A DNA stretch of 62,944 bases, taken from IMG/VR virus record IMGVR_UViG_3300025853_000079, positions 1 to 62,944 of that record. One strand, given 5' to 3'. A program made the position numbers and the translations under genes. Under the pieces are notes generated by a model that saw only the letters and a list, made by a program, of their open reading frames with translations, searched no databases and was not told the DNA's origin. Below, piece after piece: positions 152 to 18,554 of the stretch. Each line of letters starts with the position of its first letter. Position 1 is the stretch's first letter. Origin of the DNA: a virus. Its lineage: Duplodnaviria > Caudoviricetes.

Positions 152-2682
152 GGCTTGCCGTCGAAGAAGATGCGGACGCGATCGTCGTCGTGATCACGCT
201 CGACCGAATGCCCTGCGACCTCGTGAACGGTCTCGGTGCCGGTCGGTGCGTTCTTCTGTGCTTCGACGCGGTTGCGGGCGTGCTCGGCGAACTTCCAGAT
301 TTTGTGACGCTTCGTGAAGACGGGTTTCTTGAGGTGCTCGGTCTGCAGCTTGTCGAGCGTGTCGAGCGCGTTCTGCACAACTTCCGGGCTCGCATCGCGA
401 ACGGCCGTCGAAAACCTGCCGACAAAATTCTGCTTGAACAACGCAGGATCGGAGCCCCGCATCTCGCCGGCCTCGAACGCCTTCATCGTGCCGATCATCC
501 GCTCGATCTGGCCGTGTATCTCGTTGTGCGACTCTTCCGCGAGCTGCTCGGACGTCATCGCGTTGCGGATGTTGCGACGCATCGCCGCCTGAGCTTTCTT
601 CGAGTAGTCCAGTAGCTCATCGAGGCGTCGTCGCTCGGTGTCGAATCGTTTCTGATTCCGACGCGTCGGGAAGTTGCTCGGTCCGGTGACCATTGGTGAC
701 AGCGTGCGGCTCTTCGCGTCGAGGTGCGCGTTCAGTTTCTTGAGGTAGCCCTCCTGGAACCGTGAGAACTCGCTATCGAGGACCATCTGCTGCTCGGGCG
801 ACTTCGCCATCTTGCTGACGTCATCCCAGACGGAATCCATGAACTGCTTGTATTGCTGCTGTTCCTGCTTTGCCCGTTCATCGGGCACCATCGAAATGCC
901 AGCGTAGGCCGCGGCTGCTCGCTTGTAGTCGACGTCGCTCTCGGAGATCGTCGGCCGCTTCGGGCTCTCGGTCTCCGGTTCCGCTTCGCCGCCGTTCGCT
1001 CGCTCCCATTTCGCATCCGCCTGCGTACCGAACGTACTCACGCCGCTGTCGATCGCGTCGCGGATATCGGCCTCATGCTGCTCGACGGTCTTCTTGCCAG
1101 TCCGGGCTCGTTTCTCGGCCAGCTCACCGATCAGGCGATCGCGGTGCTGCTCTTTGGTCTCACCGGCCGCCTCGTCGCTTCCGGCCTGCAGGTCGGGATA
1201 ATCCGCCAGAACCTCGGCCGGCACGTCCTTGCCGCGCTTCAAAGCATCCTCGACGAGCTTGCGGTGCTTCGCTTCCGGCATCCCCGTGACGCGCTTGACG
1301 GCGTCTCTCGGTCGCTGCCAGAGCTTCTTGCCCTCACGTTCCTCGGCCTTGCTGATCTTCTTGTCGAGCTCGCTTGTGTCCGGTGGTGCCGGTCGCGTTG
1401 AGCCTGTGCTCATCGCGTTGTCCCAGATATGCCGGTCGCTGATCTTCTTTCGCTCGGCCTGCAGGTCCGCCAGGCTCGGCTCGTCGTCGGCCGGCTCGCC
1501 GACCATTTCGACCTGCTGCGGGTTGGTGTCAGGCTCGAACAACGCGTCGGCCGCGTCAGACATATCCTGCCACGGTTCGCGTTCGTCGCTGTCGGTCGCT
1601 GCCTCAGTCTTCGGTGCCGCCTTGAAACTCTGCGGTTCGAGCCACTCGTAAGATTTGCCGTCGTCGTCCTCGGCGTCCCAGACCTCGCCCATGTCGTCGA
1701 CGGTCTTATTCGTCAGCGTCAGCACTGTTCCGGCCGGCGGAGCTCCGTGTCCCATGTCGTCGTCATATGGAGGCGACCAGAGCACCCGATGCCCTTCCCG
1801 CAGGTCGGCCAGGTTGAGCTCGCCGCCGTCGCTCTTCTTCGCTTCCTGCTTTGCCTTCCGTTCCGCGATCCGCTGCTGCCGGTTCTTCTCCCAGTCCGGA
1901 TCCGTCGTGTCGATCGTCTGGCCGCGGCCCTCTTCGACGTCCCTGATCGCGCTCGCGCCGACGCCATCGTCATAGAACGACTCGAGAGCCTTGCGATTCT
2001 CTGGGCTCGCAGCCCGCTCGGCCGGCGTCTGCTTCTCGCGGTCATCAGCAGCGTTTTTCGACCGCTGTGCCAGCCAACTATGTACTTCGTTTTTCTTCAG
2101 GAACGCGTATTCCTCATCCGGATCGTCGGCCGACGTGTCAAACACGACATAGTTCTTTGAGTCTTTGCGACCATTCGCCGCAACAGCCACGAACTGTGAT
2201 CCCGGCACCTGCAGCGCAGGCGTTCCCTCATGCTCGGTCCATTCGGGTTGATGTGCGTCCCACTTGCTGCTGTCGTTCTTCTCGTGCCACTCGTCCCGTT
2301 GCTTGTTCTCACGTTCCTGGCGGCGTTTGGCACCTGGTGCCATCTTTTCGATCGATTCCGCGTCCCGATCCTTCGGCTTGCTCTTCTTCTTCGGCTTCTT
2401 CTCGTCGCCCTTGCCGAAATCGTTGAGGTTCTTGATGCCCTTCTCAGCGAGAGCGGCCGGCCCCTTCACAATGTCGCCGTCGCCGTTGATCTGGACGTGA
2501 GCCCCACCGCTGCCGTCCTCGCCTTTCAGCGTGATCCAGCGGAGTTTGCCCTGCGTCTTTTTCGACGCGCGTTCTTCGCCGCTGAACAGATCGCGTTGGC
2601 CCGGAGCGTCCTTACGCTTGCGGGCGTACTGCTCGACGTTGGCGGCTGCCGCCGCGTTGATCATTGCGGTGATCGGGTGCAT
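25..2682 (-). CDS. N-terminal part of a giant polyvalent protein, with a DUF3560-like region
   Basis: 885-aa ORF. C-terminal SPMVTGPSNFP...RVRIFFDGKPD...GWRWSPRNSAWQRK resembles DUF3560-type domains. The TAA stop at 25-27 reads TAC in the other repeat copy. Confidence 0.8.
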   Translation of the reverse strand: MHPITAMINAAAAANVEQYARKRKDAPGQRDLFSGEERASKKTQGKLRWITLKGEDGSGGAHVQINGDGDIVKGPAALAEKGIKNLNDFGKGDEKKPKKKSKPKDRDAESIEKMAPGAKRRQERENKQRDEWHEKNDSSKWDAHQPEWTEHEGTPALQVPGSQFVAVAANGRKDSKNYVVFDTSADDPDEEYAFLKKNEVHSWLAQRSKNAADDREKQTPAERAASPENRKALESFYDDGVGASAIRDVEEGRGQTIDTTDPDWEKNRQQRIAERKAKQEAKKSDGGELNLADLREGHRVLWSPPYDDDMGHGAPPAGTVLTLTNKTVDDMGEVWDAEDDDGKSYEWLEPQSFKAAPKTEAATDSDEREPWQDMSDAADALFEPDTNPQQVEMVGEPADDEPSLADLQAERKKISDRHIWDNAMSTGSTRPAPPDTSELDKKISKAEEREGKKLWQRPRDAVKRVTGMPEAKHRKLVEDALKRGKDVPAEVLADYPDLQAGSDEAAGETKEQHRDRLIGELAEKRARTGKKTVEQHEADIRDAIDSGVSTFGTQADAKWERANGGEAEPETESPKRPTISESDVDYKRAAAAYAGISMVPDERAKQEQQQYKQFMDSVWDDVSKMAKSPEQQMVLDSEFSRFQEGYLKKLNAHLDAKSRTLSPMVTGPSNFPTRRNQKRFDTERRRLDELLDYSKKAQAAMRRNIRNAMTSEQLAEESHNEIHGQIERMIGTMKAFEAGEMRGSDPALFKQNFVGRFSTAVRDASPEVVQNALDTLDKLQTEHLKKPVFTKRHKIWKFAEHARNRVEAQKNAPTGTETVHEVAGHSVERDHDDDRVRIFFDGKPDADVRRSLKSSGWRWSPRNSAWQRKNTANSVASAKSILAKH

Positions 2683-2729
2683 GTCGTCATCCGTGAGAAA
2701 TTAAGTCTGGCACGACAGAGACACGGCCC

Positions 2730-3074
2730 TTACGTGACCGGCTGGATTTCGGCGTCGCTCATCGTGCCACTACCGAGCACCATCTTGATCCACGGGAACG
2801 CCGCACACTCATCCGGAACCGGGAACCAGCCTTCTGCCGCGGCCGTCAGGCTGACGTTCTCGAACGCCGTCCAGTCCGTATCAGCGGACGTGCGACGGTT
2901 CAGAACCGTGTAGTCGCCGCCCTCTGATGTTGCTCCGTAGAACGTGATCGTCGCAGCCGCCGACAAGTAGACCATGCCGGTGATTCCGCTGTACGGGATC
3001 GCCTCGGTCGTTCCTTCTGCTGCTGTCAGTGCCAGGGCTCCCGTGCCCCGTTTGTCTCGAGAGATTACTCCCAT
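2730..3074 (-). CDS. Small beta-rich protein, probably virion-associated
   Basis: Tightly packed ORF in the late operon; Thr/Ser/Gly-rich. Start chosen at MGVIS. Confidence 0.6.
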   Translation of the reverse strand: MGVISRDKRGTGALALTAAEGTTEAIPYSGITGMVYLSAAATITFYGATSEGGDYTVLNRRTSADTDWTAFENVSLTAAAEGWFPVPDECAAFPWIKMVLGSGTMSDAEIQPVT

Positions 3075-3079
3075 TGGTT

Positions 3080-4561
3080 CTATCCTTTTCTGCTGTCGCA
3101 GGAACAAAGCATTCTGAGCATTCGCCGCCGCCGGGCGTTCGGATCAGTGCCGCCACCGCCGCCACCGCCTCCAGCCGCGCCGTATGTGACTTCAAGGTAT
3201 GGATCGTTCGCGCTCTCGGCGGTATAGACCGACGTGTTCTGCGAACCACCCGGTCCTGATGTTGAGCCGATGTAGTCCAGATTTGACCGGCAGCAGAATT
3301 TCACGATCCCTGAACCGTCGACGGCTGTTTGCAGGTGCGTGATGCCCGTGATATTCAGCGCAACCGGCGTGTCGTCGAGCTGAAACGCATCCGTCAGATC
3401 AGTGTCGTGATCGTTGAACGTGTTCTGATAGTCCGTCGTCGTGTGCCCCGTGTTGCTGGCGGTCGTCGCGCCGGTCAGCCTTACGTCGCGGTTGTATCCC
3501 CCCGTTCGGACGCAGTGCCAGTTTGCACTTTCGACCGATTGACCAGACAACGATGACACGTCGAAGAGTGTGATAAAGCGGTGATTTGTGATGGTGCTGG
3601 TGTCGTAGGTAATCCCCGCCGTGGTCTGGTGCGATGCGCTGTACGTGGAACTGCCGTTTGCCGCGATCACGGTGGCCCAATCGCCGTTTCGAGCGCCCAC
3701 GTGACCGTCCCACGTCGTGGTCTCTGAGTGCGGGTCCGGGTAGAACGTTTGCACGTCATCACTGATTAGCAACGAACCCTCCGCCGCTGCTGCGTCTACC
3801 AGCGCGGCCGGGATTGTCTTCGTGAGCCTAATCGTATCCGGATCAACGATCGTGGCAGTGACGGTCGCGGACTGCGTCACCAGCGTGCCGTCTGCTTTCC
3901 AATACCAGACCTGCGGAGCCTTAAACCCGCTGCCTCGCTGCTGGTCGAGCTGTCCGTCGAAGTAATGGACGGCAGCCCCTGCTGTCGGTATCTGGATCGT
4001 GTTGTCGATCGCCGACGCCCAGAGAGACCCGTCTGGCATCTTCGCGCGTTCGCTGCCGATCCATACCTGCGCTTTCGAGCATGTAATCAGCCAGCTGGCC
4101 TGTAGCGGTTGCCCGATGTGCCTGGACTCCAGCCTAGCCGGATCGATGACTGCTTCCCGCGTTGCCCGCGGGGCTCGCCCATGCCAGACCGTGTATCTCA
4201 ACGAGAGCCCTGGCCCCCAGGCGTCATCATACCAGACCTGCGAGGGTTGACTGTCGTCAATGCGGCCCGCGACGGCTCCGATCCCTTCTGGCGTAATCTC
4301 AAGGACCATCGCCGGGCTGGTGATCAACGACCGATTGAACACGTCCCAGCGGTTATTGATCTCGAGAACGGCCGTCTCATTGGCGAACTGCGGAACGTGA
4401 AACCGGAACGGTCCGGAATCGCTGACGAACGCGGAACCGTCGTTGCGGAATGCCGCGTTGATGGCATCCCAGCTGCCGCCGTCGTTGCGGTATCCGATCC
4501 ACTTGCCGTGTACCTGGGCGCGATTGCCAGACTTCCACGTATTGAATGCAACAGGTCTCAC
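3080..4561 (-). CDS. Virion structural protein with a C-terminal DNRLRE/CBM-like domain
   Basis: 493 aa, overlapping the portal stop. FYPDP...RFITLFDVSSL...SANDPYLEVTY pattern followed by a poly-Gly linker. Confidence 0.6.
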   Translation of the reverse strand: MRPVAFNTWKSGNRAQVHGKWIGYRNDGGSWDAINAAFRNDGSAFVSDSGPFRFHVPQFANETAVLEINNRWDVFNRSLITSPAMVLEITPEGIGAVAGRIDDSQPSQVWYDDAWGPGLSLRYTVWHGRAPRATREAVIDPARLESRHIGQPLQASWLITCSKAQVWIGSERAKMPDGSLWASAIDNTIQIPTAGAAVHYFDGQLDQQRGSGFKAPQVWYWKADGTLVTQSATVTATIVDPDTIRLTKTIPAALVDAAAAEGSLLISDDVQTFYPDPHSETTTWDGHVGARNGDWATVIAANGSSTYSASHQTTAGITYDTSTITNHRFITLFDVSSLSGQSVESANWHCVRTGGYNRDVRLTGATTASNTGHTTTDYQNTFNDHDTDLTDAFQLDDTPVALNITGITHLQTAVDGSGIVKFCCRSNLDYIGSTSGPGGSQNTSVYTAESANDPYLEVTYGAAGGGGGGGGTDPNARRRRMLRMLCSCDSRKG

Positions 4562-7356
4562 GACAGTCCCTCGGCAAACGGCAGCGATAGATCGCCGTTG
4601 GTCATCCAGTCAATCAGCTGCTTCCAGGTTGCCGGCGTCACGGTGCCCACTTTCCAGCCGGCCGTAAACGCGTCGCGGTACGCCTTGCGGGCTTCCGCCT
4701 CGGTGTGGAACCCGGTCATCACCTTATGCTCGTCAAATCGCCCGTTGTCCTGGTTGATCTGATCGACGACGTACACCAGATCGCAGGCGGGATCCGGCCC
4801 GATGAAGACGTCGAGCTGGTCGCCGTCGTTGCCCTCGGTGCGTCGCAGGTAGCCGTAATGCGCCGGCATCGTCACGGACCACTCTTTGCCGTTCGCGTCG
4901 GTGCCGCTGCGTGTCGAGCCCTTCGGATTCTCGATCGTGACCTGCAGGCCGTGATTCCAGAATTTGCCCTTCCGGTAGTTCCCGCTTTTTGCCTGCGCCT
5001 CGGTCGGGCTCGTGTCGGTCACGGCCGCGGCTTCACGGCAGGCCGTCGCGACGTCTCGCGCGTAGTGCTCGCTGTCCTGATCGGCGTCGCCGTCCAGGTC
5101 GAGCGAAACACTCTCGTCATACGTCTGAATGATCGCAGCCCGGAGCTCATCCAGAACGCCGCGATGCCGCAGCTCGCGATAGACCTCATTCTCGACGGAC
5201 GTCTCGCCGTCCTCAGCAATGCCCTCGCGTCGCTTCGCCTGAAGCCGCTGCAGGAGCGTCTTCAGCTGCTCGTGATTCCGTCGTTGAATACAGAGCTCGA
5301 TGCAGCGTTCCGCGACGTCGGCCTTGTAATCGACGACAGCCGCGTCAGCTTCGCCGTCGTCGTCGTCCTCGGATTCTTGAACCCATTCCTCGGATACGAG
5401 GCTGTACCTCGCTCCGGGCGTGCCGCCGCCGTCCTCGAGCTCGACGAACAACTCGACCTGATGGCCACCGATTCGAACGTCGTGCTTCAGGTTCCAGAGT
5501 GCTCCGTGATCGTAGAGATACTCGTCGAGAAACTCGCGATCGATGCCCTCGATCTCCGGATCAACGACGAGGTGAACGTCGATGTCGCTCTGCTCGGTGA
5601 ACCGGTCCGGATTCGCTGCGCTGCCGGCAATCACGATATCGGTGACCTGATCGCGATCGATCGCCAGCGTGCCGGCAAAGTCTTCCGCGATCTTCCGGAG
5701 CTTCTCGACGACTTCGGGAGCCGTGACGTCGAAATCACCGCGTTCGGGCTCATCGTCGCGTTCGTACTTCTCGGGCTCGACGACAGCGCCAACTTTCGCG
5801 CCCATATCCGCCACTGCGGCCAGTGTTCGAGGATCCGGCATCGCACCACCGCCGGCCGTACCGTCGTCCATACCCGGCATTCCCTCGCCGCCGCCCTGCG
5901 GGCTCGGCAGAACGCGGTCGGTTTCCTTCGGGACACTCGCGCCGATCGAATCGAGAACGTCGCTCTCTTTGATCCGGGCACCCATCTCCCAGGCACCTTT
6001 GAACGCTCCGAGCTTGCTTTCCGGATTCGGGTCTTCCGTCTCGATGACAAACCGGCAGTGGATATCGGACGCCGCCGGGAAATTGAATTGCTTGACCGGC
6101 TCGACCAGTTCGTACGTCAGCGTTTCTTCAAGGTTCCGGGCGTCGTACGTGACGATCTGCATCAGAGTGTCGAGGTGCAGGTCAGCCAGGCCGGATCCCA
6201 GCCCGGTCGCGTCCGCTTCGCTCGTCAGCGTCTGACCTAAGATGTATCGCTTGATCCGGTGCCCGAAATACTCCTCGAGCAGGTTTTTGATGATCTCCGC
6301 ACCGGCCATGCCGGGCTCAACGATGTGGACGTTGTAGAGCGGTGCGTCCTCACCCATCGGCTTCGGAAACAGAATGACGCCCTTATTTCCGCTGCCTCGC
6401 TGCAGGGCCGCCGTTTCGACGGCGTCTTTAGCCTCGGACGAACCCATCGGGTATTCCCAGACTTCGATGCCGGCTGCCGAGCGTTCCAGGTATTCGAGCA
6501 GGTAGGCCTTGCACTCCTGCTGCTGGAACCACTCCCAATAGATTCGCGATCGAATGCCGACGCCGTGAACTGAGCCAGCGTCGATTGGGTTTTCCCAGGG
6601 AGCATCCTCGATCTGGTGTCGATGGATTGCCAGCAATCGCCGTTGATAGTGCGGCAGGAAGTAAGCCATCCCGCGATCAGTCGCCGCGAGGTAGTTCTTG
6701 TCAATGTGGCTTGACGCCGCGAGAGCCCGGTTGATCAGGATTCCGACCGGGCCGAGATCGCGGTTGTACGTGCCGCTCAGCCAGCTTGGGTCATCGTGCT
6801 GGAAGACCAGCTTGTCGCCGTTGACCGGGCTCCAGCCATACCCCTCGGCCAGCGTTGGCGCGGTCGGCATGATGTAAGATTCGCCCTGAATCCGCTGCTT
6901 CGCCCAGCGGTGCTGAACGGCATACTTGCCATACCAGATCGCTTCGAGCAGGTTGCGACGGTACTCCGTGAAGCGTCGCATACGCTTCAGAATCATCGTC
7001 AGCTTCGTGCAGAGCTCTTTCTGCTCGGGGCTGTTCTCGTCTTCGGGCTCAATGTGCCAGTCGAGTAGGGCCGTGAGCCGCTGCCGGGCTTCAAGGCACT
7101 CCATGATGCCGACGTCGTTCCGCATGAAACGAGCGTTGTCGCGGCTGGCTTTGATCGCCTCGTCGCTGTCTCGGTAGACGCGGGCAATCGAGCCCAGGAG
7201 CGAGTTGAACGTCAGGACGTGCGGCAGAGGCTGCTTGCCGGCGTTCGGCAGGCCGCCACTGAGAAACGACGTATCGACGATATTCGCAGTCGTGCGATTG
7301 AGCTGCGTCGTGATCTGCTGATAGCTGTCGGGGATTCGTGGCGCCGCGCCGATCAT
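4558..7356 (-). CDS. Mu gp29/DUF935-like portal fused to a pol-beta-type nucleotidyltransferase and an inorganic pyrophosphatase domain
   Basis: Portal motifs LLEAIWYG and ILGQTLTS. NTase motif IAGSAAN...SDIDVHLV...VELFVE. InPase motifs GNYRKG, IENPKGS.RSG, HYGY, DGDQLDVFIG, FDEHKVM.GF. Confidence 0.85.
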   Translation of the reverse strand: MIGAAPRIPDSYQQITTQLNRTTANIVDTSFLSGGLPNAGKQPLPHVLTFNSLLGSIARVYRDSDEAIKASRDNARFMRNDVGIMECLEARQRLTALLDWHIEPEDENSPEQKELCTKLTMILKRMRRFTEYRRNLLEAIWYGKYAVQHRWAKQRIQGESYIMPTAPTLAEGYGWSPVNGDKLVFQHDDPSWLSGTYNRDLGPVGILINRALAASSHIDKNYLAATDRGMAYFLPHYQRRLLAIHRHQIEDAPWENPIDAGSVHGVGIRSRIYWEWFQQQECKAYLLEYLERSAAGIEVWEYPMGSSEAKDAVETAALQRGSGNKGVILFPKPMGEDAPLYNVHIVEPGMAGAEIIKNLLEEYFGHRIKRYILGQTLTSEADATGLGSGLADLHLDTLMQIVTYDARNLEETLTYELVEPVKQFNFPAASDIHCRFVIETEDPNPESKLGAFKGAWEMGARIKESDVLDSIGASVPKETDRVLPSPQGGGEGMPGMDDGTAGGGAMPDPRTLAAVADMGAKVGAVVEPEKYERDDEPERGDFDVTAPEVVEKLRKIAEDFAGTLAIDRDQVTDIVIAGSAANPDRFTEQSDIDVHLVVDPEIEGIDREFLDEYLYDHGALWNLKHDVRIGGHQVELFVELEDGGGTPGARYSLVSEEWVQESEDDDDGEADAAVVDYKADVAERCIELCIQRRNHEQLKTLLQRLQAKRREGIAEDGETSVENEVYRELRHRGVLDELRAAIIQTYDESVSLDLDGDADQDSEHYARDVATACREAAAVTDTSPTEAQAKSGNYRKGKFWNHGLQVTIENPKGSTRSGTDANGKEWSVTMPAHYGYLRRTEGNDGDQLDVFIGPDPACDLVYVVDQINQDNGRFDEHKVMTGFHTEAEARKAYRDAFTAGWKVGTVTPATWKQLIDWMTNGDLSLPFAEGLS

Positions 7357-9545: not shown

Positions 9546-11096
9546 TCAGCGTCGACCTTCGCCGCGATCAAGCTGCATCGATTCGTGTCGCCGACGGATC
9601 CGGACGCTCGACGCCGAATGATCGTGCGACGTTCGCGTAATCGTCTCGCCGCGGCGTGCCGCTTCCGTGTAGACCAGATAGCGCAGCGCGTCGACGGCGT
9701 GGTCGTCCTTCTTCAGCGGCTTGGGCTTCGCGTCGCGAGGATTCGCCCCGGTGACGCTGCCTCGCTCCCAGCGATACGTGCGCATCTGCCGCACGAGGTT
9801 CGGGCACCGCTCTCGATGGATGTAGAGCCGACACTGGCCGCCGAGCGTCTTGTCCGGCTTCAGCATGTAACGAACGTGCTCGATGCCCTCGTAAACCGAG
9901 TTGTTCGCGGCCGTCATGTTCAGCGGTCGGCAGTCGGGCTTGTACTGCGTTAGCTTCGTCGCGAGCCGAATCCCGTCCGGGTTGCTCGGGTCAGCATAGG
10001 TCGTCCCGAACCAGGGTTCATTGTCGTTCCAGTCCCAGTCATCAGAAATGCGTGACACTTCCTCGAGGTGATCGGCCGTCGTCATCGTCTGATCGGTGCT
10101 GTAATACTCATCGAAGACGAACCACTGGCCGGCCTCGGTCTTGTACGCCCAGAGACAGCAGAACGCGTTTTCCGGGCCGGCTCCCCAGTCGATTGCGCGT
10201 CGGTATTCGACGTTCTCAGGGAAATCGATCACGTCGTCGCCGGGAGCGTGTACCTGCGAATTCCAGGTCTGGTAAATCTGCCCTTCGAACTGCCCGAACT
10301 GGCCACGGCAGCGGACCGGCTTCACCTCGTCGGGAAGCATCCCGAAAAACTCGTCAAACCACTCCTGTGACACCTGACCGGCATCGACGGCACACTCGGT
10401 GTTCGACCAGTAGACAGCCCAGCCAGGCGGCAGGTCGTCCTCGTCGATCATGTCCTGCAGCTCGATCGACAATGCGGGATCGACCGGCGTGAACTCGGCC
10501 AGCTTGCTGCCGGGGAATTCGTACTCGCGGGATCCGCGGAGCACTTCCTCGAGGATGCCCCAGGGGAACTGCTCGACGAACAGAAAGCCGCCGATTGCGC
10601 GGGCCTGCATCTGGCTCCGGCCCTGTCGGTAACTCTTGAACTCCAGCACCCAGTTCTTGCCAGGCCGGCCTTCCCACGGCTTCAGCGGCACGCGTTTCGG
10701 CCAGTTGTCTTTCGAGCTCATCCACGCGATGCGATCGAACTCAATTTCGCCGTGTGGACAGATCGAGCGGCCGTAGAGCTTCTCGGCCCAGCAGGCTTCC
10801 ATGACCTGCTCGTAGCTCTCGGCAATGACCCAGAACGGAGTGTTCTCGCGCGGAGGCGGCTGCTCGTGCAGCACGAACTTCATCGCCTTGGCGAGCCCGA
10901 GCGTCGTCGTGCCGGCACCGTTTCCGCCCAGCATGAACGAGACGCCGCGGTGCTTCGAGTTGAAATATCCGGCCTGTTCGTCGCCCTTCTGCGGCTGATC
11001 AGGGCGAGGCTTGAACGTGCAGAACGCGTCATCGAGTGTCGAGACAACGCGGCCGGCTTCGTGCTCTGAATCGATCTCCGGACCGAGCAGCGGCAT
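9546..11096 (-). CDS. terL: Terminase large subunit
   Basis: Walker A-like GGNGAGTT; nuclease motifs AIDWG, FVFDEYY, YADPS and KDDHAVDALRY. Confidence 0.9.
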   Translation of the reverse strand: MPLLGPEIDSEHEAGRVVSTLDDAFCTFKPRPDQPQKGDEQAGYFNSKHRGVSFMLGGNGAGTTTLGLAKAMKFVLHEQPPPRENTPFWVIAESYEQVMEACWAEKLYGRSICPHGEIEFDRIAWMSSKDNWPKRVPLKPWEGRPGKNWVLEFKSYRQGRSQMQARAIGGFLFVEQFPWGILEEVLRGSREYEFPGSKLAEFTPVDPALSIELQDMIDEDDLPPGWAVYWSNTECAVDAGQVSQEWFDEFFGMLPDEVKPVRCRGQFGQFEGQIYQTWNSQVHAPGDDVIDFPENVEYRRAIDWGAGPENAFCCLWAYKTEAGQWFVFDEYYSTDQTMTTADHLEEVSRISDDWDWNDNEPWFGTTYADPSNPDGIRLATKLTQYKPDCRPLNMTAANNSVYEGIEHVRYMLKPDKTLGGQCRLYIHRERCPNLVRQMRTYRWERGSVTGANPRDAKPKPLKKDDHAVDALRYLVYTEAARRGETITRTSHDHSASSVRIRRRHESMQLDRGEGRR

Positions 11097-11124
11097 CCAG
11101 GCAGTCTTTGACTGCTATGCCCCG

Positions 11125-11142
11125 GCTCGGTGGTTCCGATGC
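11125..11142 (-). promoter_or_regulatory. Late-leader motif B, copy 2
   Basis: GCTCGGTGGTTCCGATGC upstream of terL. Confidence 0.7.
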
Positions 11143-11151
11143 CATGACGAA

Positions 11152-11193
11152 CAAACAAAAAGGCCCGGCAGCCAGTGGAACACTGCCGGGCCT
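11152..11193 (-). terminator. Putative intrinsic terminator
   Basis: GGCCCGGCAG...CTGCCGGGCC hairpin followed by TTTTTGTTT on the minus strand. Confidence 0.6.
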
Positions 11194-11247
11194 CGCGGAC
11201 GATAAAAAAACGACTCGACAACCTCCGAGTTGAACGGAGAAGCGGGG

Positions 11248-11598
11248 TTATGAGCCCTCGCCGGCACCCTTGCTGTCAGCGTCGTCAGAAAACCCGTCCG
11301 CTGCTGGTGTTTCCGGGTAAATCGCACCGGGTCGCGGCTCGGTGCTCAGGTAGACCGTGAGTCCGTTTTCTTCGCGACCATAACGACCGTCGTCGGTCAC
11401 GTAGTCCTTGCCATTGCTGGCGTAAATCTTGCCGTTTGATGCTAGCTCGCTTGGCTGCGCTTCGGCCTCTTCAGTGTCAGCAACAATCTCAGCCTGCCCG
11501 CCTTCCTGCAGGTCATCGTTGTCGTTATCCGTCGTTGCCTCGGCAACAACCTCGCCCGTATCGGCGTCGACGATTGCGTCTGTCTGTTCGTCCGGCAT
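11248..11598 (-). CDS. Acidic hypothetical protein
   Basis: 116 aa with a GAGGAG ribosome-binding site. Confidence 0.7.
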   Translation of the reverse strand: MPDEQTDAIVDADTGEVVAEATTDNDNDDLQEGGQAEIVADTEEAEAQPSELASNGKIYASNGKDYVTDDGRYGREENGLTVYLSTEPRPGAIYPETPAADGFSDDADSKGAGEGS

Positions 11599-11624
11599 TG
11601 TCGTGCTCCTCGTGCTCAGAAGTG

Positions 11625-11669
11625 AAAGAAAAAGCCGGCCGCCCCTGTGTGCGGGAGGCGGCCGGCTTC
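11625..11669 (-). terminator. Putative intrinsic terminator
   Basis: AAGCCGGCCGCC...GGCGGCCGGCTT hairpin followed by a T-tract on the minus strand. Confidence 0.65.
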
Positions 11670-11687
11670 AGCAAGCTACACGCCCGC

Positions 11688-12536
11688 TTAACCAGCTTCG
11701 CGGCTGATGTGCTGGCCGTAATAGGTGAGCGTTTTCGCCTCGGCAGCTCCGTCCGCTTCGACGCCGACATACGGGATCAGGTCCGTCGCGTCCGTCAGTG
11801 CTGTCGTCGTCGCGACCAGCGTGCCGTTGATGTAGAAACGGGCGATGCGATCGCTATCGATCGCGATGACCAGCTCGTAGCTGGTGCTCGCTGCCACCGC
11901 GACACCGGTATCAGTCGCAGTGTCCGTTCCGCCGATCGAGCTGACCGCCTGGAACTCACCGTCGTTGACGTCATCCTCATAGCGGAAGAAGACTTGATCG
12001 TCGTCCGTCGCTGTCGTTGGCGTGTTGGTCAGCTTCAGGCCGGCCCAGATGATGCAGTTATCGATCGCGGCGCCAGTCTCGATGCGACACTGCCAGGCGG
12101 TCTGCTTGTCGGTGCCCCAGGTGATCTGAGTCCATGCCGACTGATTCGCGTCGAGGTGCGGTAACAGGATGACGCTGTCACCATCAGCCCCGTCCGTTGT
12201 GAACGTGAGGCCGCCCTCAGCGTTGAACGTGACGTCGTCGCTCGACGCGTTTGTGCCGAGAATCTCGAAATCCGGATCCGCGATCATGCGGGTCGCTTCG
12301 GCCGCGTTCTGGATGTCGGCATTCAGGCCAGGCTTGCCGCGCTGTCCGGCGATGTGTGTCAGCTGGATGCGGCTGGGCACCAGTCGAGCCGGGGCATCCA
12401 GCACCGTCTCACGACCAGCCAGCAGGCCTCGCAGGTTTTTGTCATAGAACAGGGCGCCACTGCAGGCATTGCTTGGTCGGTGATCGCTGTCTCCCGCGAT
12501 CTGACTGCCGTGCAGGCTGGGAATTGCCTCAACCAT
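11688..12536 (-). CDS. Probable virion protein, beta-sandwich/ConA-like
   Basis: 282 aa, Thr/Asp-rich; C-terminal YELVIAID...ARFYINGTLV pattern; lies downstream of a motif A copy. Confidence 0.6.
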   Translation of the reverse strand: MVEAIPSLHGSQIAGDSDHRPSNACSGALFYDKNLRGLLAGRETVLDAPARLVPSRIQLTHIAGQRGKPGLNADIQNAAEATRMIADPDFEILGTNASSDDVTFNAEGGLTFTTDGADGDSVILLPHLDANQSAWTQITWGTDKQTAWQCRIETGAAIDNCIIWAGLKLTNTPTTATDDDQVFFRYEDDVNDGEFQAVSSIGGTDTATDTGVAVAASTSYELVIAIDSDRIARFYINGTLVATTTALTDATDLIPYVGVEADGAAEAKTLTYYGQHISREAG

Positions 12537-12600
12537 CGTTCATTGCTCCGTACGGGTGATCGGGATTCAGTCTGGAATCCGGTGTGTGAGGCGTGGGCTG

Positions 12601-12627
12601 TAGCAAATCAGCTGAGCGATTGTCGAA
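12601..12627 (-). promoter_or_regulatory. Putative late promoter motif A, copy 3
   Basis: TAGCAAATCAGCTGAGCGATTGTCGAA. Confidence 0.7.
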
Positions 12628-12635
12628 TTCGCTTT

Positions 12636-12863
12636 TCAGGCCATCGCAGCCCTGATCTGCTCGACCTTCTGCTCCCAGTCCTTCGGCTGATGTTCGGTTA
12701 GCAGGTCGATCGCTTTCTGCATTGCTTGCAGTCGCGTCAGGCCTGCCACTCGCATGTAGCGGAGCGGATCGCTAGCCAGATTACTCTCGCTGCCGTGAGC
12801 GTCAGCCTGTGCTGCCTTCTCGGCTTCGAGGAGCTTGTCGACGATGTGCTTGAGTCTGGACAT
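12636..12863 (-). CDS. Hypothetical protein
   Basis: 75 aa with a GGAG ribosome-binding site. Confidence 0.6.
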   Translation of the reverse strand: MSRLKHIVDKLLEAEKAAQADAHGSESNLASDPLRYMRVAGLTRLQAMQKAIDLLTEHQPKDWEQKVEQIRAAMA

Positions 12864-12906
12864 TTCGCTCCGTCAGTGAGCGCTGCGGACACGGCACGCG
12901 GAGTCG

Positions 12907-13500
12907 TTACGTTGCCTGCTTCTCGAAACCAATTCCTCGCATTCCTGCACGCTCTGCAGCTCGAGGTATCGCACCGCTCCCCGCAAATGGGTCGAGCAGG
13001 AGGCCACCCTCGACGGCAAATGGCCTGACTGCCCAGTCTGCAACTTCGGGCGGCAACTCTGCACGTCGACCATTACGGATCGGCTCTGCTGTAATGTGGT
13101 CAAGCATGTCGGCGGGAATTCCCTCACCCTTGCCTTTTCGCATCGCCACAGCGTTGACCGTCGCCCACTGCCAGCCGGGAGTTCTCGTTTTCGTTTTCGC
13201 GACCGGCTTGCACCAAGTACCGATGCGGACAGGCTCCAGAATCCCACGAACTGCCTCGACCATGTAGGCCGTCGAACGCCAGGACGACGCACAGAACACG
13301 ATCATCCAGCCGCCCCGCTTCAAGCGGACCGCAGCCTCGCGGAGAACGACAGCGACAGTCGCGCTCAATGCGTGCTCGCCGCCACTTCCCCCGAATGCGT
13401 AAGGCGGATCGGTCACGATCACATCCGGAGTCAACTCGAACTCTGAAAGTAAATCGATCGCGTCGCCGCGTCTGATCGAAAACATCTCGCTCTCTGTCAT
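12907..13500 (-). CDS. N6A/N4C DNA methyltransferase (beta class)
   Basis: VIVTDPPY catalytic motif and LLDPFAGSG SAM-binding motif. Confidence 0.85.
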   Translation of the reverse strand: MTESEMFSIRRGDAIDLLSEFELTPDVIVTDPPYAFGGSGGEHALSATVAVVLREAAVRLKRGGWMIVFCASSWRSTAYMVEAVRGILEPVRIGTWCKPVAKTKTRTPGWQWATVNAVAMRKGKGEGIPADMLDHITAEPIRNGRRAELPPEVADWAVRPFAVEGGLLLDPFAGSGAIPRAAERAGMRGIGFEKQAT

Positions 13501-13573
13501 TCCGTTCTCTCCAAAAGTAGCGCTGGACAGTTTTCCAAAAGTAGCGCTGGACACGGCAGCCGCCTGCTGTGCG

Positions 13574-14242
13574 TTATCCAGCAAACGGCAGCACGCCCTG
13601 ACGTAGACGCTCGACCGCTTTCTGGCAGTATTCCTCGTTTATCTCTATTCCAACCGCACGCATTCCGGCCAGCTTCGCCGCAACCAATGTCGTCCCCGCC
13701 CCCATGAACGGATCAACCACACTTGTTACGTCATTAACCATGCTCAGGCACCACTGAATCAACCTCAACGGCTTCTCGGTCGGGTGGTGCTTTCCGTTCG
13801 TGTGCGCCTCAACCCGGCTCAAGCGAAACGTCTTGCACGGCTTATCCAGCGTTGTCCACGCTGCCTCAAAATCGCTGCCGCTGAATTCCTGCACCTTGTC
13901 CCACGTCAACCAGCATCGTGACGGCTTCACCGCAAAATAGTTGCCGCCCCAAATGATCGCGTTTTCTGCCAACTCAATTTGTGAATCAATCACCCACTGG
14001 CTCGGCGTTGCCGCATCCCAGTCTGGTGACTCTTTGAAATGCTTTTCCCATTCACCGTTCCCGCCCGTCAATCGCTTCCCTAACCCATACGGCGGATCAG
14101 TTAACAACAAGTCAAACCGCCCCAACCACGGCAACACTTTCCTGCAATCGGCGTTGTAGATCGTGATTCCACCCTGATCGTAAAAAGGCTGGATAACAAA
14201 CGGTTGCACCGGAGCGGCGGTCGTCGTCGCATCTGAATTCAT
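13574..14242 (-). CDS. N6A/N4C DNA methyltransferase (beta class) inside an integron-type cassette
   Basis: LLLTDPPYG, HPTEKP, VVDPFMGAGTT and GIEINEEY motifs. Confidence 0.9.
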   Translation of the reverse strand: MNSDATTTAAPVQPFVIQPFYDQGGITIYNADCRKVLPWLGRFDLLLTDPPYGLGKRLTGGNGEWEKHFKESPDWDAATPSQWVIDSQIELAENAIIWGGNYFAVKPSRCWLTWDKVQEFSGSDFEAAWTTLDKPCKTFRLSRVEAHTNGKHHPTEKPLRLIQWCLSMVNDVTSVVDPFMGAGTTLVAAKLAGMRAVGIEINEEYCQKAVERLRQGVLPFAG

Positions 14243-14274
14243 AGTCTTATCTCCGCCGCCCGGTGAACCGGGCG
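13574..14274 (+). mobile_element. Integron-type gene cassette (701 bp)
   Basis: Begins at G/TTATCCAGC (13573) and ends in an attC whose R'' side, GCTGGATAAC (14188-14197), is its exact reverse complement. Confidence 0.75.
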
Positions 14275-14280
14275 TTATTG
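14191..14280 (+). other. attC recombination site
   Basis: GGATAAC...GTTATTG ends. The inner palindrome TT(G)CACCGG(A)GCGGCGG / CCGCCGCCCGGTGAA has two unpaired bases. Confidence 0.75.
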
Positions 14281-14338
14281 GTAGCGCTGGACTGATTCCG
14301 CGAGCGCTGCGGACACGGCATCCGGAGCGATTTACGCC

Positions 14339-14743
14339 TCACGGCCGCTGCTTAACGAGCTCCTGTAGCTCAGCAATCTTGCCCGTCAGATCTGCCTGCT
14401 CCTGATACTTAAGCAGATTGTCGAACCAGAGCTTGATGCCCTGCAGCGCGACTCGATCCTTCTCGGTTCCCGTGTCGATGATCTCTAGCAGCTTCGCCTG
14501 AATCTTTTTTCCTTCCATGATGAAGCCGCCGAGCAAGCCATCGACGGCCTCGTTCCGTATCTCGTCGACCGTTGCCATGAAATCCGGATCCGTCGCTCGT
14601 CGCACGATCGTCGACAGATGGACGCCGGCCGCATTTGCGGCCTCACGTTGAGACAGTCCGCGGGCCAGCGCGATACGAATCCGATCGTCTCGCGCGACCG
14701 TCGACGCGGATTTGCCCTCTCGCTTGGCCTTCTTCTTCGCCAT
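14339..14743 (-). CDS. HTH protein, possible terminase small subunit
   Basis: LARGLSQREAANAAGVHLSTIVR HTH, then DPDF and a helical C-terminus. Confidence 0.55.
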   Translation of the reverse strand: MAKKKAKREGKSASTVARDDRIRIALARGLSQREAANAAGVHLSTIVRRATDPDFMATVDEIRNEAVDGLLGGFIMEGKKIQAKLLEIIDTGTEKDRVALQGIKLWFDNLLKYQEQADLTGKIAELQELVKQRP

Positions 14744-14750
14744 GGATCAC

Positions 14751-15806
14751 CTACGCAGTTGCTTCGGCTGTCGTGCGACGCTTCCAGGCAGAGTGCAACG
14801 CAGACACTCGTTGCACGGTCACCGCCGAACTGAAGTGCTGGCTCAGTTCGACAGCGATCGCCTTCATATCCGTGCGCCCCGACTCAAACCGTTCGACGGC
14901 TGCCGCCTTGACAGCGTCTGGCGTTGCCTTGGGTGGCTCCTGACTCGCGTTCTCATCGACAGGCTCGACTGGCGAGTCCTCGTCAGTGCTCTCGCTGTCA
15001 GCTGGTGCGGATTCAGTCGCGATGCCGTGCCGCTTCGCAACATCATCGACCTGGTTCAGCGTGATCTCGAACCGCTTCGCGACCTGCCAGGGAAGTGCTC
15101 CCTCTCTCAGAAACTCGACAACGTCCGCCTCGATCTCCTTGAGCCGCTCGGCTTCCGACTGCTGGACGATGCCGGCCTTCGATTGCTGTTCGACCTGCGT
15201 CGCTCGATCGAGGTGCCCCTGCAGCTCGATGTTGAGCTTCTCCCGAATGATCTTGTCTTCGGGATGCACAAAGTCGGCAGGGATCACACTGCCCGGCTTA
15301 TCGGCCTCCTGCTCAATCAACTTGCTGAGCGGCTGGCCGTGCTCGGTAAAGAAGATTCCAGTCCAGTTGCCATCGACGCGCAGGCCGAACTGAACTGCGA
15401 TCTGGAAGTCATTCAGCCCTTCGGCCTTGTATTCCTTCACGCTCTTGAGAACTCGCCCCTCGACCGCAATCCGGACCTTGCGATAGGTCTCGATGACGTC
15501 ACGGAACGCAGACCAGAACGCCTGCACGGGCTCACCGTCGGTCGTGATCTTCGCGCGATCGACGTACGCCTGATACTCCAGATCAACGCGTCGCATCCGG
15601 TCCGCGATCTCGCGGCAGTCGGCCGGCACGTCACCGTAGCAGATCGTCGAGATAGCAACCTGCAGCGCGGCATCAAGATCGCTGCCGTCCTCGATGCCGG
15701 TTGCCGTCAGGTCATCGCACCACTTGTCATGTGCTTCGATCAGAGTGTCGATCGCGCGAATGATATCGCCGCGTCGACTGTGCAGTGGGTTAGAGCTCCC
15801 CGTCAT
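14751..15806 (-). CDS. Hypothetical protein with possible HTH segments
   Basis: 351 aa; LPWQVAKRFEITLNQV looks HTH-like. Confidence 0.65.
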   Translation of the reverse strand: MTGSSNPLHSRRGDIIRAIDTLIEAHDKWCDDLTATGIEDGSDLDAALQVAISTICYGDVPADCREIADRMRRVDLEYQAYVDRAKITTDGEPVQAFWSAFRDVIETYRKVRIAVEGRVLKSVKEYKAEGLNDFQIAVQFGLRVDGNWTGIFFTEHGQPLSKLIEQEADKPGSVIPADFVHPEDKIIREKLNIELQGHLDRATQVEQQSKAGIVQQSEAERLKEIEADVVEFLREGALPWQVAKRFEITLNQVDDVAKRHGIATESAPADSESTDEDSPVEPVDENASQEPPKATPDAVKAAAVERFESGRTDMKAIAVELSQHFSSAVTVQRVSALHSAWKRRTTAEATA

Positions 15807-15878
15807 TGTGCTTCCTGCATGTTGGGGAGGGGCTGGCCATAAGGATAGCCCCTCGGTGCTTGTTGTCCAGAGGTTTCG

Positions 15879-16130
15879 CTACGTCTTGCCCTCGGTCTTT
15901 TCCGCTGGCTTCGTGACGTCGATCTTCGTGAAGCCCTTCGCTTCCAACAGGAACGGAGCCGCCTTAACGGCCGTCTCTGCTGCTGCCCGACATTGCTCCG
16001 GGTTGATGGTCGGCATGTTGCTGATCAGCGCCGCGTAGATTGCGATCTCGGTCTCGGTGGTGACCTGCCCGATCGCCGCTCGCATGTGTGCCTCGCGTTG
16101 TGCGAGATCAACAATTCCGTTTCCGTCCAT
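15879..16130 (-). CDS. Hypothetical protein
   Basis: 83 aa in operon context. Confidence 0.6.
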   Translation of the reverse strand: MDGNGIVDLAQREAHMRAAIGQVTTETEIAIYAALISNMPTINPEQCRAAAETAVKAAPFLLEAKGFTKIDVTKPAEKTEGKT

Positions 16131-16179
16131 TGGTAACTTTCTTTTCTGGTTTGTGGTGATGGCCCGATTACTGCCCGCG

Positions 16180-16953
16180 TTACTCCTCGCTGCCGTAGCC
16201 GTTCGTGTTCCGCCAGGCGACCACGGCGTCGCTGATCTTGTCGATCGCAGCTGCCCCGATGCCCTTCACCTTTCGCAGACGGTCAGCGTTCATCGCTTCC
16301 TCGAGCTCCTTGACGGTCGCGATGTCCGCGTCTTCGAGCTTCTGCGCCTGGCTCGGCGTGATGTCGAGCTCGCTGACGGCCGCAGTGATCGCGGGATCCT
16401 TGCCGCTGGTGCTGGGCTCTTCGGCCTGCTGCTCTTCTTCGCTGTCCTCGGACGGGAACGGCAGAGCCGGCTGCCAGTTGCCGTTGAGCGCGTTGTTCAG
16501 CTCCACGCAGGTCGAGTTCAGCCGGTTCTGTGCGGCTTCCATGTACTTCTTGGCGGCCTTGGCTTCCTCGGCCGCTGCCGTGTGCGCGTCGGTCGCATCC
16601 TGCAGAGCTTCGAGCCGCTGCCCCATTTCGCTCTCGAGGCGTTTGACGGCCTCTTCGCGAGTCTCGACTTTCGGTCGCTCGGGTTCCTCGGTCTCGCCGG
16701 CCAGCAGATCGCAGAGGCAGTCGGGCAGGTCCGGATACTCCGGCTCTCGCCCCTCTTCGCCCACTGCGAACGATTCCGCGGAAACGTGATCGATCCAGTT
16801 GCTGAGCTCACACTGCTGCTCTTCGTCGAGAGCTTCCAGCTGCTCGAGTTCGACCGGTGACGTTTCGCCATCTTCGATCTTGCCGACCGAGACCAGTGCA
16901 GTCGCCAGGCCCTTGTGCAGTTCCGTCGTTTCGATTGCTGTCGCTGTCGTCAT
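16180..16953 (-). CDS. Acidic coiled-coil protein with a C-terminal RNAP alpha-CTD/HhH-like domain
   Basis: VSELDITPSQAQKLEDADIATVKEL...LRKVKGIGAAAIDKI. Confidence 0.65.
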   Translation of the reverse strand: MTTATAIETTELHKGLATALVSVGKIEDGETSPVELEQLEALDEEQQCELSNWIDHVSAESFAVGEEGREPEYPDLPDCLCDLLAGETEEPERPKVETREEAVKRLESEMGQRLEALQDATDAHTAAAEEAKAAKKYMEAAQNRLNSTCVELNNALNGNWQPALPFPSEDSEEEQQAEEPSTSGKDPAITAAVSELDITPSQAQKLEDADIATVKELEEAMNADRLRKVKGIGAAAIDKISDAVVAWRNTNGYGSEE

Positions 16954-16965
16954 CGTGTGCCCCTT

Positions 16966-18087
16966 TCAGGAGTTGTTGCAGGCGTCAAACGCCTGAATGA
17001 ACGCCGCAGCTACCTGCGGCACGATTGCATTGCCAAATCCCTTCAACGCTCCGACGGGGTTGTACCAGTGCTCCGCCGCGGCTTGTCCGTCGGAGCTGCG
17101 AACAGCCACGCGACCGGATACCCCATGAGCCAGCACGGAAGCTGAGGGTCCAACACGCCGGGCCCTTTCGTCTCGGCAGGGGGCGATTCGGTATTCGCTC
17201 CATGCGTCCGAGCGGCATCCGCTGGCAGCGAGCCGCCCGTCTGATTCGGCCCGCCCTTGCTGCCGTCCGTCGCCCGCGGCGTATTCCAGCCTGTGATCTG
17301 GCCGCACAGTGTCTGGCCGGTATTGTGTTTTGAGCCGGGTTTTCTCGTTGCTGTCTCGTTCCTGCCGTTCCGCGAGTCGTTGACTGTTGGCGTTGCCCAC
17401 CCGTTCATCATCTCGGCAATCGCCCCGAGACATTGTTCCGAGTGACGGGATCGAGTTTTCCAGTTCTCCCGCATCATCGAGCCGTTCGGGTTTACCGCTT
17501 CCGTCGCCATGCCCGGCGTGTCCTTGTGATCGCGAGCCGATGGACTCACCCACCCAGAACAGACGTTGTCGGATGTGCGGTGCGCCGACGCTGTGTGCGC
17601 CCAGAACTGCCGCCCCGACGGCGTAGCCCTCAGCTTCCAAGTCTGCCGATACTCCATCGAACCAGACGGGAGCATCTCCTGCAGACGCTGGCCGATCGCC
17701 TTTGACAGTTCCGACGACCGCTGCGCTGGCGACTTGTTCGCCGAACACGATCCCGGGTCGCTGGGCCCGTATGAGTTCGCAGAAGACTGGCCACAGGTGC
17801 CGCTCGTCCTGGTGTCCGTTTCGCTTTCCGGCTGCTGAGAATGGCTGACAGGGGCACGAGCCGGTCCAGACGGATCGATTGTCGTCCCATCCGGCCAGTC
17901 GAAGAGCAACTGACCAGCCACCGATGCCGGCGAAGAAATGGCACTGTGTGAATCCGTCGAGGTCATCCGGTCGCACCTCCGTGATCGATCGTTCGTCGAC
18001 GACTCCCGGAGCAATCAGCCCCGCGTCGATCAGATTCCGCAGCCACTGAGCCGCGTACACGTCGTGTTCGTTGTAGTAAGCCACCAT
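16966..18087 (-). CDS. C5 cytosine DNA methyltransferase, main frame
   Basis: FFAGIGG (motif I), GSCPCQPFS (IV), EQV (VI), PHIRQRLF (VIII) and GNAIVP (X). Confidence 0.9.
   Translation of the reverse strand: MVAYYNEHDVYAAQWLRNLIDAGLIAPGVVDERSITEVRPDDLDGFTQCHFFAGIGGWSVALRLAGWDDNRSVWTGSCPCQPFSAAGKRNGHQDERHLWPVFCELIRAQRPGIVFGEQVASAAVVGTVKGDRPASAGDAPVWFDGVSADLEAEGYAVGAAVLGAHSVGAPHIRQRLFWVGESIGSRSQGHAGHGDGSGKPERLDDAGELENSIPSLGTMSRGDCRDDERVGNANSQRLAERQERDSNEKTRLKTQYRPDTVRPDHRLEYAAGDGRQQGRAESDGRLAASGCRSDAWSEYRIAPCRDERARRVGPSASVLAHGVSGRVAVRSSDGQAAAEHWYNPVGALKGFGNAIVPQVAAAFIQAFDACNNS
17043..18014 (-). CDS. Overprinted alternative-frame polypeptide of the C5 methyltransferase (putative beta subunit; start uncertain)
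   Basis: Three W-x-[ST]-P repeats and a motif IX-like LDPQLPCWLMGYPVAW in a different frame inside the gene. Confidence 0.6.
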   Translation of the reverse strand: MLRESSTNDRSRRCDRMTSTDSHSAISSPASVAGQLLFDWPDGTTIDPSGPARAPVSHSQQPESETDTRTSGTCGQSSANSYGPSDPGSCSANKSPAQRSSELSKAIGQRLQEMLPSGSMEYRQTWKLRATPSGRQFWAHTASAHRTSDNVCSGWVSPSARDHKDTPGMATEAVNPNGSMMRENWKTRSRHSEQCLGAIAEMMNGWATPTVNDSRNGRNETATRKPGSKHNTGQTLCGQITGWNTPRATDGSKGGPNQTGGSLPADAARTHGANTESPPAETKGPGVLDPQLPCWLMGYPVAWLFAAPTDKPRRSTGTTPSER

Positions 18088-18128
18088 TTTTGATCTACCA
18101 GCACCGTGCGGTGCTCCAGTTTGTTCAG

Positions 18129-18554
18129 TTATTCCGCGAAGACGCGGATTCGAATGGCCGGTCCGTGCTTCCGATGCCCGGCGTCCTGCCGGTAGTCGCA
18201 TTGGGTGATCCACTTCGGGCTGTCGTCGTGAAACCAGCCGATCGCGACCAGAGCGTCAACGAGCTCTTTGGCGTTGCCTCGACCGATGCTGTCGAAGTCC
18301 CAGAAATGCTGCCCTTTGCCCAGGATTCGCGTGATCTCGATGCGGACGGGATGCCCGAATGGCTTCCGTGCGAGCCCCAGCAGTGACAGGTCACGCTCGA
18401 ACTCGTCGCGGCGTTTCTTTGCAGCCTGCCAGCTCTTCTGACGCCCGTCGTTCTCGTTGGTGAGTTCCAGCGGCAGGAGCTTGTCGACCAGTGATTTTTC
18501 GCGTGACGCATTCATTTGGTTAGCGCTAACCTCTGTTTGAATATATACTGCCAT
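18129..18554 (-). CDS. RusA-like Holliday junction resolvase
   Basis: WDFDSI...KELVDALV...GWFHDDSPKWI acidic triad; start uncertain. Confidence 0.7.
   Translation of the reverse strand: MAVYIQTEVSANQMNASREKSLVDKLLPLELTNENDGRQKSWQAAKKRRDEFERDLSLLGLARKPFGHPVRIEITRILGKGQHFWDFDSIGRGNAKELVDALVAIGWFHDDSPKWITQCDYRQDAGHRKHGPAIRIRVFAE

Follow-up and report, generated by a model that had tools for sequence, protein, structure and literature searches.

A probable single integron cassette with an antisense methyltransferase gene in the genome of a freshwater phage

How does a DNA methyltransferase gene that starts inside an attC-like hairpin come to stand in the packaging region of a phage genome that carries no recognizable integron integrase? 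We addressed this question in a freshwater phage record of IMG/VR (referred to as the window, meaning the whole stretch of DNA analyzed), which is linear, 62,944 bp long, and complete according to the CheckV estimate. All genes around the locus are on the - strand, and the neighborhood is delimited by the following genes:

9546-11096, - strand: large terminase
12907-13503, - strand: neighboring methyltransferase (N6_N4_Mtase, E 1.8e-9)
14339-14743, - strand: HTH protein in the small-terminase position
16966-18213, - strand: C5 methyltransferase

Three small or accessory genes lie between the large terminase and the methyltransferase at 12907-13503, and the gene of a 351-aa protein comes after the HTH gene in the - strand gene list. 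The segment in question is a single cassette occupying an intergenic site, between the HTH/small-terminase-like gene and the methyltransferase at 12907-13503. Counting its own gene, the interval 12907-18213 holds three DNA methyltransferase genes in 5.3 kb (two of N6_N4 type, one C5), and no restriction enzyme gene was identified among the neighbors scanned around them.

The original prediction described this segment as an integron-type cassette sitting in a phage; its gene would be reversed and would take its ribosome binding site (RBS) and start codon from the attC. Its limits can be placed as follows:

13574-14274, + strand: gene cassette of 701 bp, from TTA... to the G of R', bounded by two G|TT points
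13573-13579, + strand: left junction G|TTATCC, with the crossover between G13573 (target) and T13574 (first cassette base)
14275-14292, + strand: right target flank, TTATTG then GTAGCGCTGGAC, phage DNA that completes the in-situ R'

The right junction reads G|TTATTG. The 10-bp inverted repeat that had been proposed is present, GTTATCCAGC (13573-13582) being the exact reverse complement of GCTGGATAAC (14188-14197), although such a pair is weak evidence alone, occurring in 193 of 2000 shuffles of 13500-14349. The GC content, which had looked lower than in the flanks, is 0.52-0.56 in 300-nt windows across 13450-14199 versus 0.59-0.63 on either side. We also compared the pairing of the R boxes. 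R'' (GGATAAC) complements the cassette's own left end (GTTATCC) at 7 of 7 positions and the in-situ R' (GTTATTG) at 5 of 7. When a cassette is opened at G|TT, it is its first bases that pair with R'' in the circular form. The in-situ R' is accordingly a hybrid here, as a G|TT exchange would produce. Scripted over seven cassettes, own-end complementarity was 7/7 in five, 6/7 in one, and 4/7 in one, and complementarity of the in-situ R' was 4-6/7; in an eighth cassette, encoding a 235-aa methyltransferase in phage locus L015 and read by eye, the own end again paired 7/7. In this respect, the ends match those of cassettes that can circularise.

The right part of the cassette holds the attC site, whose elements are:

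14191-14280, + strand: attC, matched by covariance model R1 (34.9 bits, E 1.1e-5, model positions 1-70 of 70)
14191-14197, + strand: R'' GGATAAC
14198-14202, + strand: 5' spacer AAACG
14203-14214, + strand: L'' GTTGCACCGGAG, with extra bases G14206 and A14213
14259-14268, + strand: L' CCCGGTGAAC
14269-14273, + strand: 3' spacer CGGGC
14274-14280, + strand: R' GTTATTG

A variable loop separates L'' from L', the conserved AAC/GTT boxes are present, and the spacers are 5 nt long on each side. The attC consensus is RYYYAAC/GTTRRRY, from which R'' and the in-situ R' deviate outside AAC/GTT. The two extrahelical bases announced from the sequence, G14206 and A14213, fall on both unpaired model positions of the 5' arm in the R1 alignment.

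For the model R1 we used 16 class-1 attC sites and excluded the candidate. These sites came from five class-1 integron arrays (plasmid R46 and four plasmids found via its intI1-attI1 region); they were taken from cassette junctions and aligned, with the structure given as R box, L box, and two bulges. The IntegronFinder attC covariance model had been named as one check; with R1, a match over the full length was obtained at 34.9 bits, its E-value of 1.1e-5 being rough, as for any score of this home-made model with sites delimited by eye. With filters off, the sole other match in the window scored 8.3 bits (E 9.5) at 28879-28961 (-); this one has AAT/ATT instead of AAC/GTT and is probably due to chance. 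On class-1 integron loci, R1 gave 21 matches of 31.1-73.1 bits (trained and untrained sites together), and on a background of 99 terminase-relative phage loci (949,696 bases) a single match of 17.2 bits. R1 is not a general attC detector because its scores do not exceed 12.8 bits in Polaribacter phage P12002L, for which the parts of PMC9892861 consulted here report a CALIN with two DNA methyltransferases; one 9.3-bit match in this phage immediately precedes a methyltransferase start and is on the strand opposite to it. In comparison with P12002L, the attC of the window is therefore nearer to class-1 sites (34.9 versus <=12.8 bits under R1).

Folding gave a consistent picture, as the hairpin 14185-14284 folds better than shuffled sequences on both strands (z -2.8 on +, -3.7 on -), with 3 of 200 shuffles folding as well on the + strand and 0 of 200 on the - strand. 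We also aligned 17 environmental sites, including the one of the window, to the model. In this alignment, 86.9% of the cells pair versus 66.6% in shuffles, a value reached in 0 of 500 shuffles, and sliding the partners by 1-3 columns reduced pairing to 26-40%; these counts lean towards the model structure because the alignment was fitted to the model. The L helix is 94.1% paired and all 10 of its pairs change on both sides, while AAC/GTT is kept in 17/17 sites. In situ, pairing is poor at the outer positions of the R box, which is what hybrid R' boxes should show. Both by its sequence and by its structure, the attC is a canonical one. It follows the same plan as class-1 cassettes (blaVIM-2, estX, aadA; plasmids R46, pND11_107, pFA267), that is R''-5 nt-L''...L'-5/6 nt-R', and its L'' GTTGCACCGGAG resembles GTTGCAGCCGAC from the blaVIM-2 attC, the two extra bases occupying identical positions in both. 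In class-1 cassettes, however, the attC top strand carries the gene, which stops before or within R'', whereas the gene of the present cassette occupies the bottom strand and has its start within the attC, in a record without intI, attI, or Pc.

This gene and its start region are laid out as follows:

13574-14242, - strand: methyltransferase ORF, 222 aa, N6_N4 family, TDPPYG motif, Pfam N6_N4_Mtase E 7.8e-20
14240-14254, - strand: translation start region, GGAG at 14254-14251 and ATG at 14242-14240, in the unpaired attC loop

As had been foreseen, the gene is antisense to the attC, its stop codon TAA is the complement of TTA at 13574-13576, the first three bases of the cassette, and its GGAG and ATG are inside the hairpin. 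The start region of the methyltransferase is in the loop also in phage locus L015 and in the bacterial locus L261 described below. A structure comparison of the 222-aa protein returned adenine methyltransferases, including CcrM, DpnA, and MboIIA, as the nearest solved structures, with N4-cytosine enzymes matching more weakly; the predicted cassette product is a beta-type amino-methyltransferase. Only about 35 nt of cassette sequence lie upstream of the RBS, leaving no room for a promoter in the cassette, and a search for sigma-70-like promoters found 0 sites in 12500-15000. The cassette gene is co-directional with the surrounding - strand operon of the phage, and read-through transcription from this operon is the likely source of its expression.

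We then asked where related cassettes are found. In GTDB genomes, the closest relative (best 80 of 430 relatives) is in a metagenome-assembled genome (MAG) of Schlesneria (Planctomycetota), with 69% aa identity, the next ones being at 48% or less. In this Schlesneria locus (L261), the methyltransferase gene is flanked by two opposite-strand attC sites (41.5 and 39.8 bits). The loop of one attC contains the likely ATG and RBS of the gene, the G|TTAGCC of the other contains its TAA, and the ORF of the neighboring cassette has the usual orientation. The contig also carries purA, indicating that it is chromosomal. A blastn comparison of the window with L261 gave 70.7% identity over 665 nt (window 13572-14223). 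The DNA homology begins at 13572 and thus at the left junction, where it stops 1-2 nt or less from the crossover.

The same arrangement was seen more widely. In the 80 bacterial loci, which are the best 80 of the 430 relatives oriented with the methyltransferase on +, R1 gave 18 matches (E up to 10) in nine loci, all 18 on the strand opposite to the methyltransferase. An IntI above the NCBIfam cut-off is encoded by four of five cassette-bearing MAGs versus 0 of 14 control genomes; the Schlesneria MAG encodes one, on a different contig from the cassette. Reverse-oriented cassettes in general are known in chromosomal integrons. In a Desulfobulbaceae MAG (L296 1-2717), ORFs at 510, 992, and 2032 each start in a reversed attC (29.3-32.0 bits), so that the antisense cassettes there are not limited to methyltransferases. 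These results bear on the proposal that the phage uses cassettes oriented to fit its operon. The direction of insertion does fit the operon, but the antisense ORF is a property of the cassette family, bacterial arrays included (18/18), and is therefore not a phage-specific adaptation.

Among viral sequences, relatives of the 222-aa protein in IMG/VR reach at most 49% identity (best 80 of 597 stretches). R1 scored 20 bits or more in four of these 80 viral loci, antisense to the methyltransferase in L015 and L045 and on the same strand in L063, where the match is 2.3 kb from the methyltransferase homologue, and L082. L015 belongs to a 32-kb Mu-like contig (G001) with genes for major head, portal, large terminase, and Mu-type transposition. 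It shows on one strand a row (2496-5696) of two methyltransferase genes (274 and 235 aa) and the gene of an IntI-like recombinase. The shorter methyltransferase shares 41% identity, over its full length, with that of the window (E 1e-56), and the recombinase has TIGR02249 as its best family at 184.8 bits, below the cut-off of 265. Three reversed attC-like sites stand upstream of the IntI-like gene, two of them (25.1 and 20.1 bits) covering both methyltransferase start codons, and both methyltransferase cassettes read towards the integrase. L045 (also retrieved as L257, 9121-13437) belongs to a 16-kb contig (G003) with portal, terminase, and primase genes, and encodes an IntI of 348.9 bits, above the cut-off. 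It has four reversed attC-like sites, one of 28.2 bits and three weak ones (10.7-15.3 bits), that bound its cassette genes (a 90-aa gene, the methyltransferase, and a PAPS-reductase-like gene); these genes are antisense to the attC and co-directional with intI. L082 (408-5107, contig G004) contains an array of five or more attC-like sites, which share the strand of its methyltransferase homologue, the reverse of the arrangement in the window, and no intI was found in its 23.9-kb contig. The same cassette family is found in bacterial attC arrays and beside intI in other phage contigs.

With these relatives at hand, we considered whether the hairpin could merely regulate the translation or stability of the methyltransferase mRNA, its resemblance to an attC being fortuitous. 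Such a role would suit the folding of the - strand, which is the mRNA sense (z -3.7), the position of the RBS and AUG in the loop, and a terminator-like stem scored at 14257-14274 (+). It does not account for a match to R1 at E 1.1e-5 with bulges at the canonical positions, nor for homologous sites that are arranged in arrays and covary, nor for the occurrence of IntI in four of the five cassette-bearing bacterial genomes tested and in two phage contigs with homologous cassettes. We regard this explanation as highly improbable.

The phage surroundings of the cassette have features of their own. The gap between the HTH (small-terminase-like) gene and the large terminase gene, 11097-14338 in the window, is a variable cargo region in this phage group, as seen by comparing loci L083, L084, L086, L088, L089, L090, and L093. 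In five relatives, about 1 kb separates the homologue of the 351-aa gene from TerL and the genes are contiguous, while L083/L084 and the window have a gap of about 3.6 kb with unrelated cargo. In L084, the 3' end of the HTH gene recurs 220 nt farther downstream as a 33-nt direct repeat (97%; 7048-7080 and 7268-7300), with a second repeat beside it (7087-7104 and 7299-7316); these repeats look like the scar of another kind of insertion.

The cassette is also inside a cluster of phage-specific repeats at gene junctions (12873-12903, 13510-13562, and 14281-14327; also 30368-30386), which includes

13510-13553, + strand: pair of perfect 20-nt tandem repeats, whose end is 20 bp to the left of the crossover, upstream of the methyltransferase at 12907-13503 and outside the cassette

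The motif TGCCGTGTCC(GC)AGCGCT is found upstream of three consecutive genes (- strand), and both N6_N4 methyltransferase genes stand between the copies of a 31-nt direct repeat (87% identity). The 11-mer GTCCAGCGCTA recurs 10 nt after the stop codon of the phage integrase gene, where it is followed by CCAAT after one extra base (GTCCAGCGCTAACCAAT versus GTCCAGCGCTACCAAT), and GTCCAGCGCT occurs 4 times versus 0.35 expected. The palindrome AGCGCT is depleted in the window, with 10 sites versus 27.3 +/- 5.2 in shuffles, and 5 of these 10 sites are in the junction repeats between 12879 and 14308. The motifs of the junction repeats were absent from all relatives examined. We also considered the flanking repeats (GTCCAGCGCTAC, TGCCGTGTCCGCAGCGCT) as attC remnants or attI and rejected them, as they have no GTT core and no fold.

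What type of element is it, then? As had been noticed in the sequence, there is no intI, the best TIGR02249 match in the record being 14.6 bits versus a cut-off of 265. This match is the only tyrosine recombinase of the record, at 30396-31676, a generic phage integrase that we discarded as a candidate IntI. The neighboring methyltransferase at 12907-13503 was likewise discarded as a second cassette, as it has no attC match and its four relatives (L163-L166) have none either. The locus is thus not a complete integron, which would have intI, attI, and Pc beside the cassettes, since the record has no intI; nor is it a CALIN (at least two attC within 4 kb on one strand, no integrase), only one attC being present in the window. 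It has one attC, no intI, and a G|TT (GWT-type) point that is neither attC nor attI, as do the elements named SALINs in the consulted parts of bioRxiv 10.1101/2022.09.11.507474. As for a circularisable cassette, its own ends pair, and homologous cassettes stand in an attC array and next to intI. Taking these results together, 13574-14274 is probably one integron gene cassette, made of a folded attC and an opposite-strand methyltransferase gene and integrated alone at a G|TT site, which agrees with the original prediction of a reversed-gene cassette in its attC match with controls, its end pairing, and its homologous antisense cassettes.

The route of arrival we infer from the junctions. A circular cassette would have been inserted by an integron integrase from the host or from a co-resident element, through recombination between attC and a secondary site ("attG") at G|TT. 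Once there, the methyltransferase gene would be read through from the co-directional - strand operon, with its own stop codon, RBS, and ATG supplied by the cassette, and the methylated phage DNA would be protected against host restriction. A single cassette would probably be hard to excise again because no second attC stands beside it.

Two other histories have to be weighed against this one. The cassette might be the remnant of a phage-borne integron, whose ancestor had intI and an array here and lost the integrase and the other attC sites. The contigs of L015 and L045, with intI directly beside homologous antisense methyltransferase cassettes, show phage loci of the kind that this would require, and a second methyltransferase gene adjoins the cassette, in a terS-terL interval that is a variable cargo region in the phage group. 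Against this, no second attC, even weak, was found near 12500-15000 with filters off, the left flank of the cassette has no fold (z -0.54), the relatives of the neighboring methyltransferase are without attC matches, and no intI fragment is present in the record; we consider a remnant unlikely. Alternatively, the segment might come from a cassette array of a host or phage and have entered by homologous or illegitimate recombination, without an integron integrase, its G|TT ends being inherited from the donor. Mosaicism is common in phages, this route is raised for phage CALINs by Qi et al. (PMC9892861, in the parts consulted), and the 33-nt duplication of the HTH gene end in L084 marks another kind of insertion in the group. 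However, no part of a neighboring cassette or attC came along, the homology to L261 ends within 1-2 nt of the crossover, and the in-situ R' is a hybrid pairing 5/7 with R'', as expected from a G|TT exchange, so that recombination of this type appears somewhat less likely still than a remnant. Integrase-mediated insertion of one cassette is the reading that we prefer.

Relatives or reads with the empty site had been suggested as a check. No empty-site relative was found, TerL relatives (up to 70% identical in IMG/VR and 57% in metagenomes) being too distant for such a comparison; blastn of 11000-16200 against GenBank phages gave no match, and the 351-aa neighbor gene led to no relatives in viral contigs. 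As for the host, a search with TerL in the five cassette-bearing MAGs gave no match. The stretch or part of it occurs in 18 freshwater sequencing runs, as Logan contigs. In those of 4 of the 18 runs, we found no 13573/14275 joint and no circle, and contigs cannot show rare variants. Two joints, 13792>14148 and 13951>14084, did appear in run contigs, with sides of 20-24 letters and other letters between them; these look like methyltransferases of other organisms.

We compared the locus with known systems. Phage integrons, CALINs, and methyltransferase cassettes have been published (Qi, Rajabal, Ghaly, Tetu, and Gillings 2023, PMC9892861). According to the consulted parts of that study, which required at least two attC sites per element, IntI1 recombines phage attC sites in five of six cases, N6_N4 methyltransferases are among the phage cassette genes, and escape from host restriction is proposed as the role of the phage methyltransferase cassettes. 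The window resembles the elements described there in having an attC-bounded N6_N4 methyltransferase cassette in a phage and differs from them in that the cassette is single and both crossover points can be read. In the parts consulted of bioRxiv 10.1101/2022.09.11.507474, IntI inserts cassettes at GWT sites of bacterial genomes, giving rise to the single-attC SALINs. These are alike in having one cassette, no intI, no nearby attC, and a GWT-type site (here G|TT), but they are in bacterial chromosomes, whereas here the site is in a phage genome and the insertion is deduced from the junctions. Orphan phage methyltransferases are also similar, with no restriction gene identified beside the gene, which stands here in a late/packaging operon with two further methyltransferases; what differs is that the gene is packaged as a mobile integron cassette. 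As argued for phage cassettes in PMC9892861, its expected role is probably to shield the phage DNA from host restriction enzymes.

The antisense layout with the start codon inside the attC was not found described in the consulted parts of PMC9892861 or in a limited literature search. The present case thus differs from the published phage elements in being a single cassette with readable crossovers, in its class-1-like attC, and in an antisense layout that recurs in bacterial arrays and phage integrons. Tentatively, and with more doubt than confidence, we propose that antisense methyltransferase cassettes could be a widespread family built for phage capture, each a complete translation unit. 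Being promoterless and pointing against the integron Pc, they would be silent in bacterial arrays and turned on only when co-directional in a phage operon; some phages (L015, L045) would keep their own IntI with arrays made purely of such cassettes reading towards intI.

In conclusion, this locus provides an example, clean at the level of the junctions, of a canonical integron cassette in a phage without an integron integrase of its own, and it favors the view that the bacterial cassette pool is a source from which phages obtain anti-restriction genes. As the crossovers are readable to the base and a 71%-identical cassette exists in a bacterial array, the case is directly testable. The antisense layout raises the question of how such cassettes are expressed and for whose benefit they are kept in bacterial integrons. 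Should they be silent in bacteria and active in phages alone, integrons would be of use to both parties in the conflict between phage and host.
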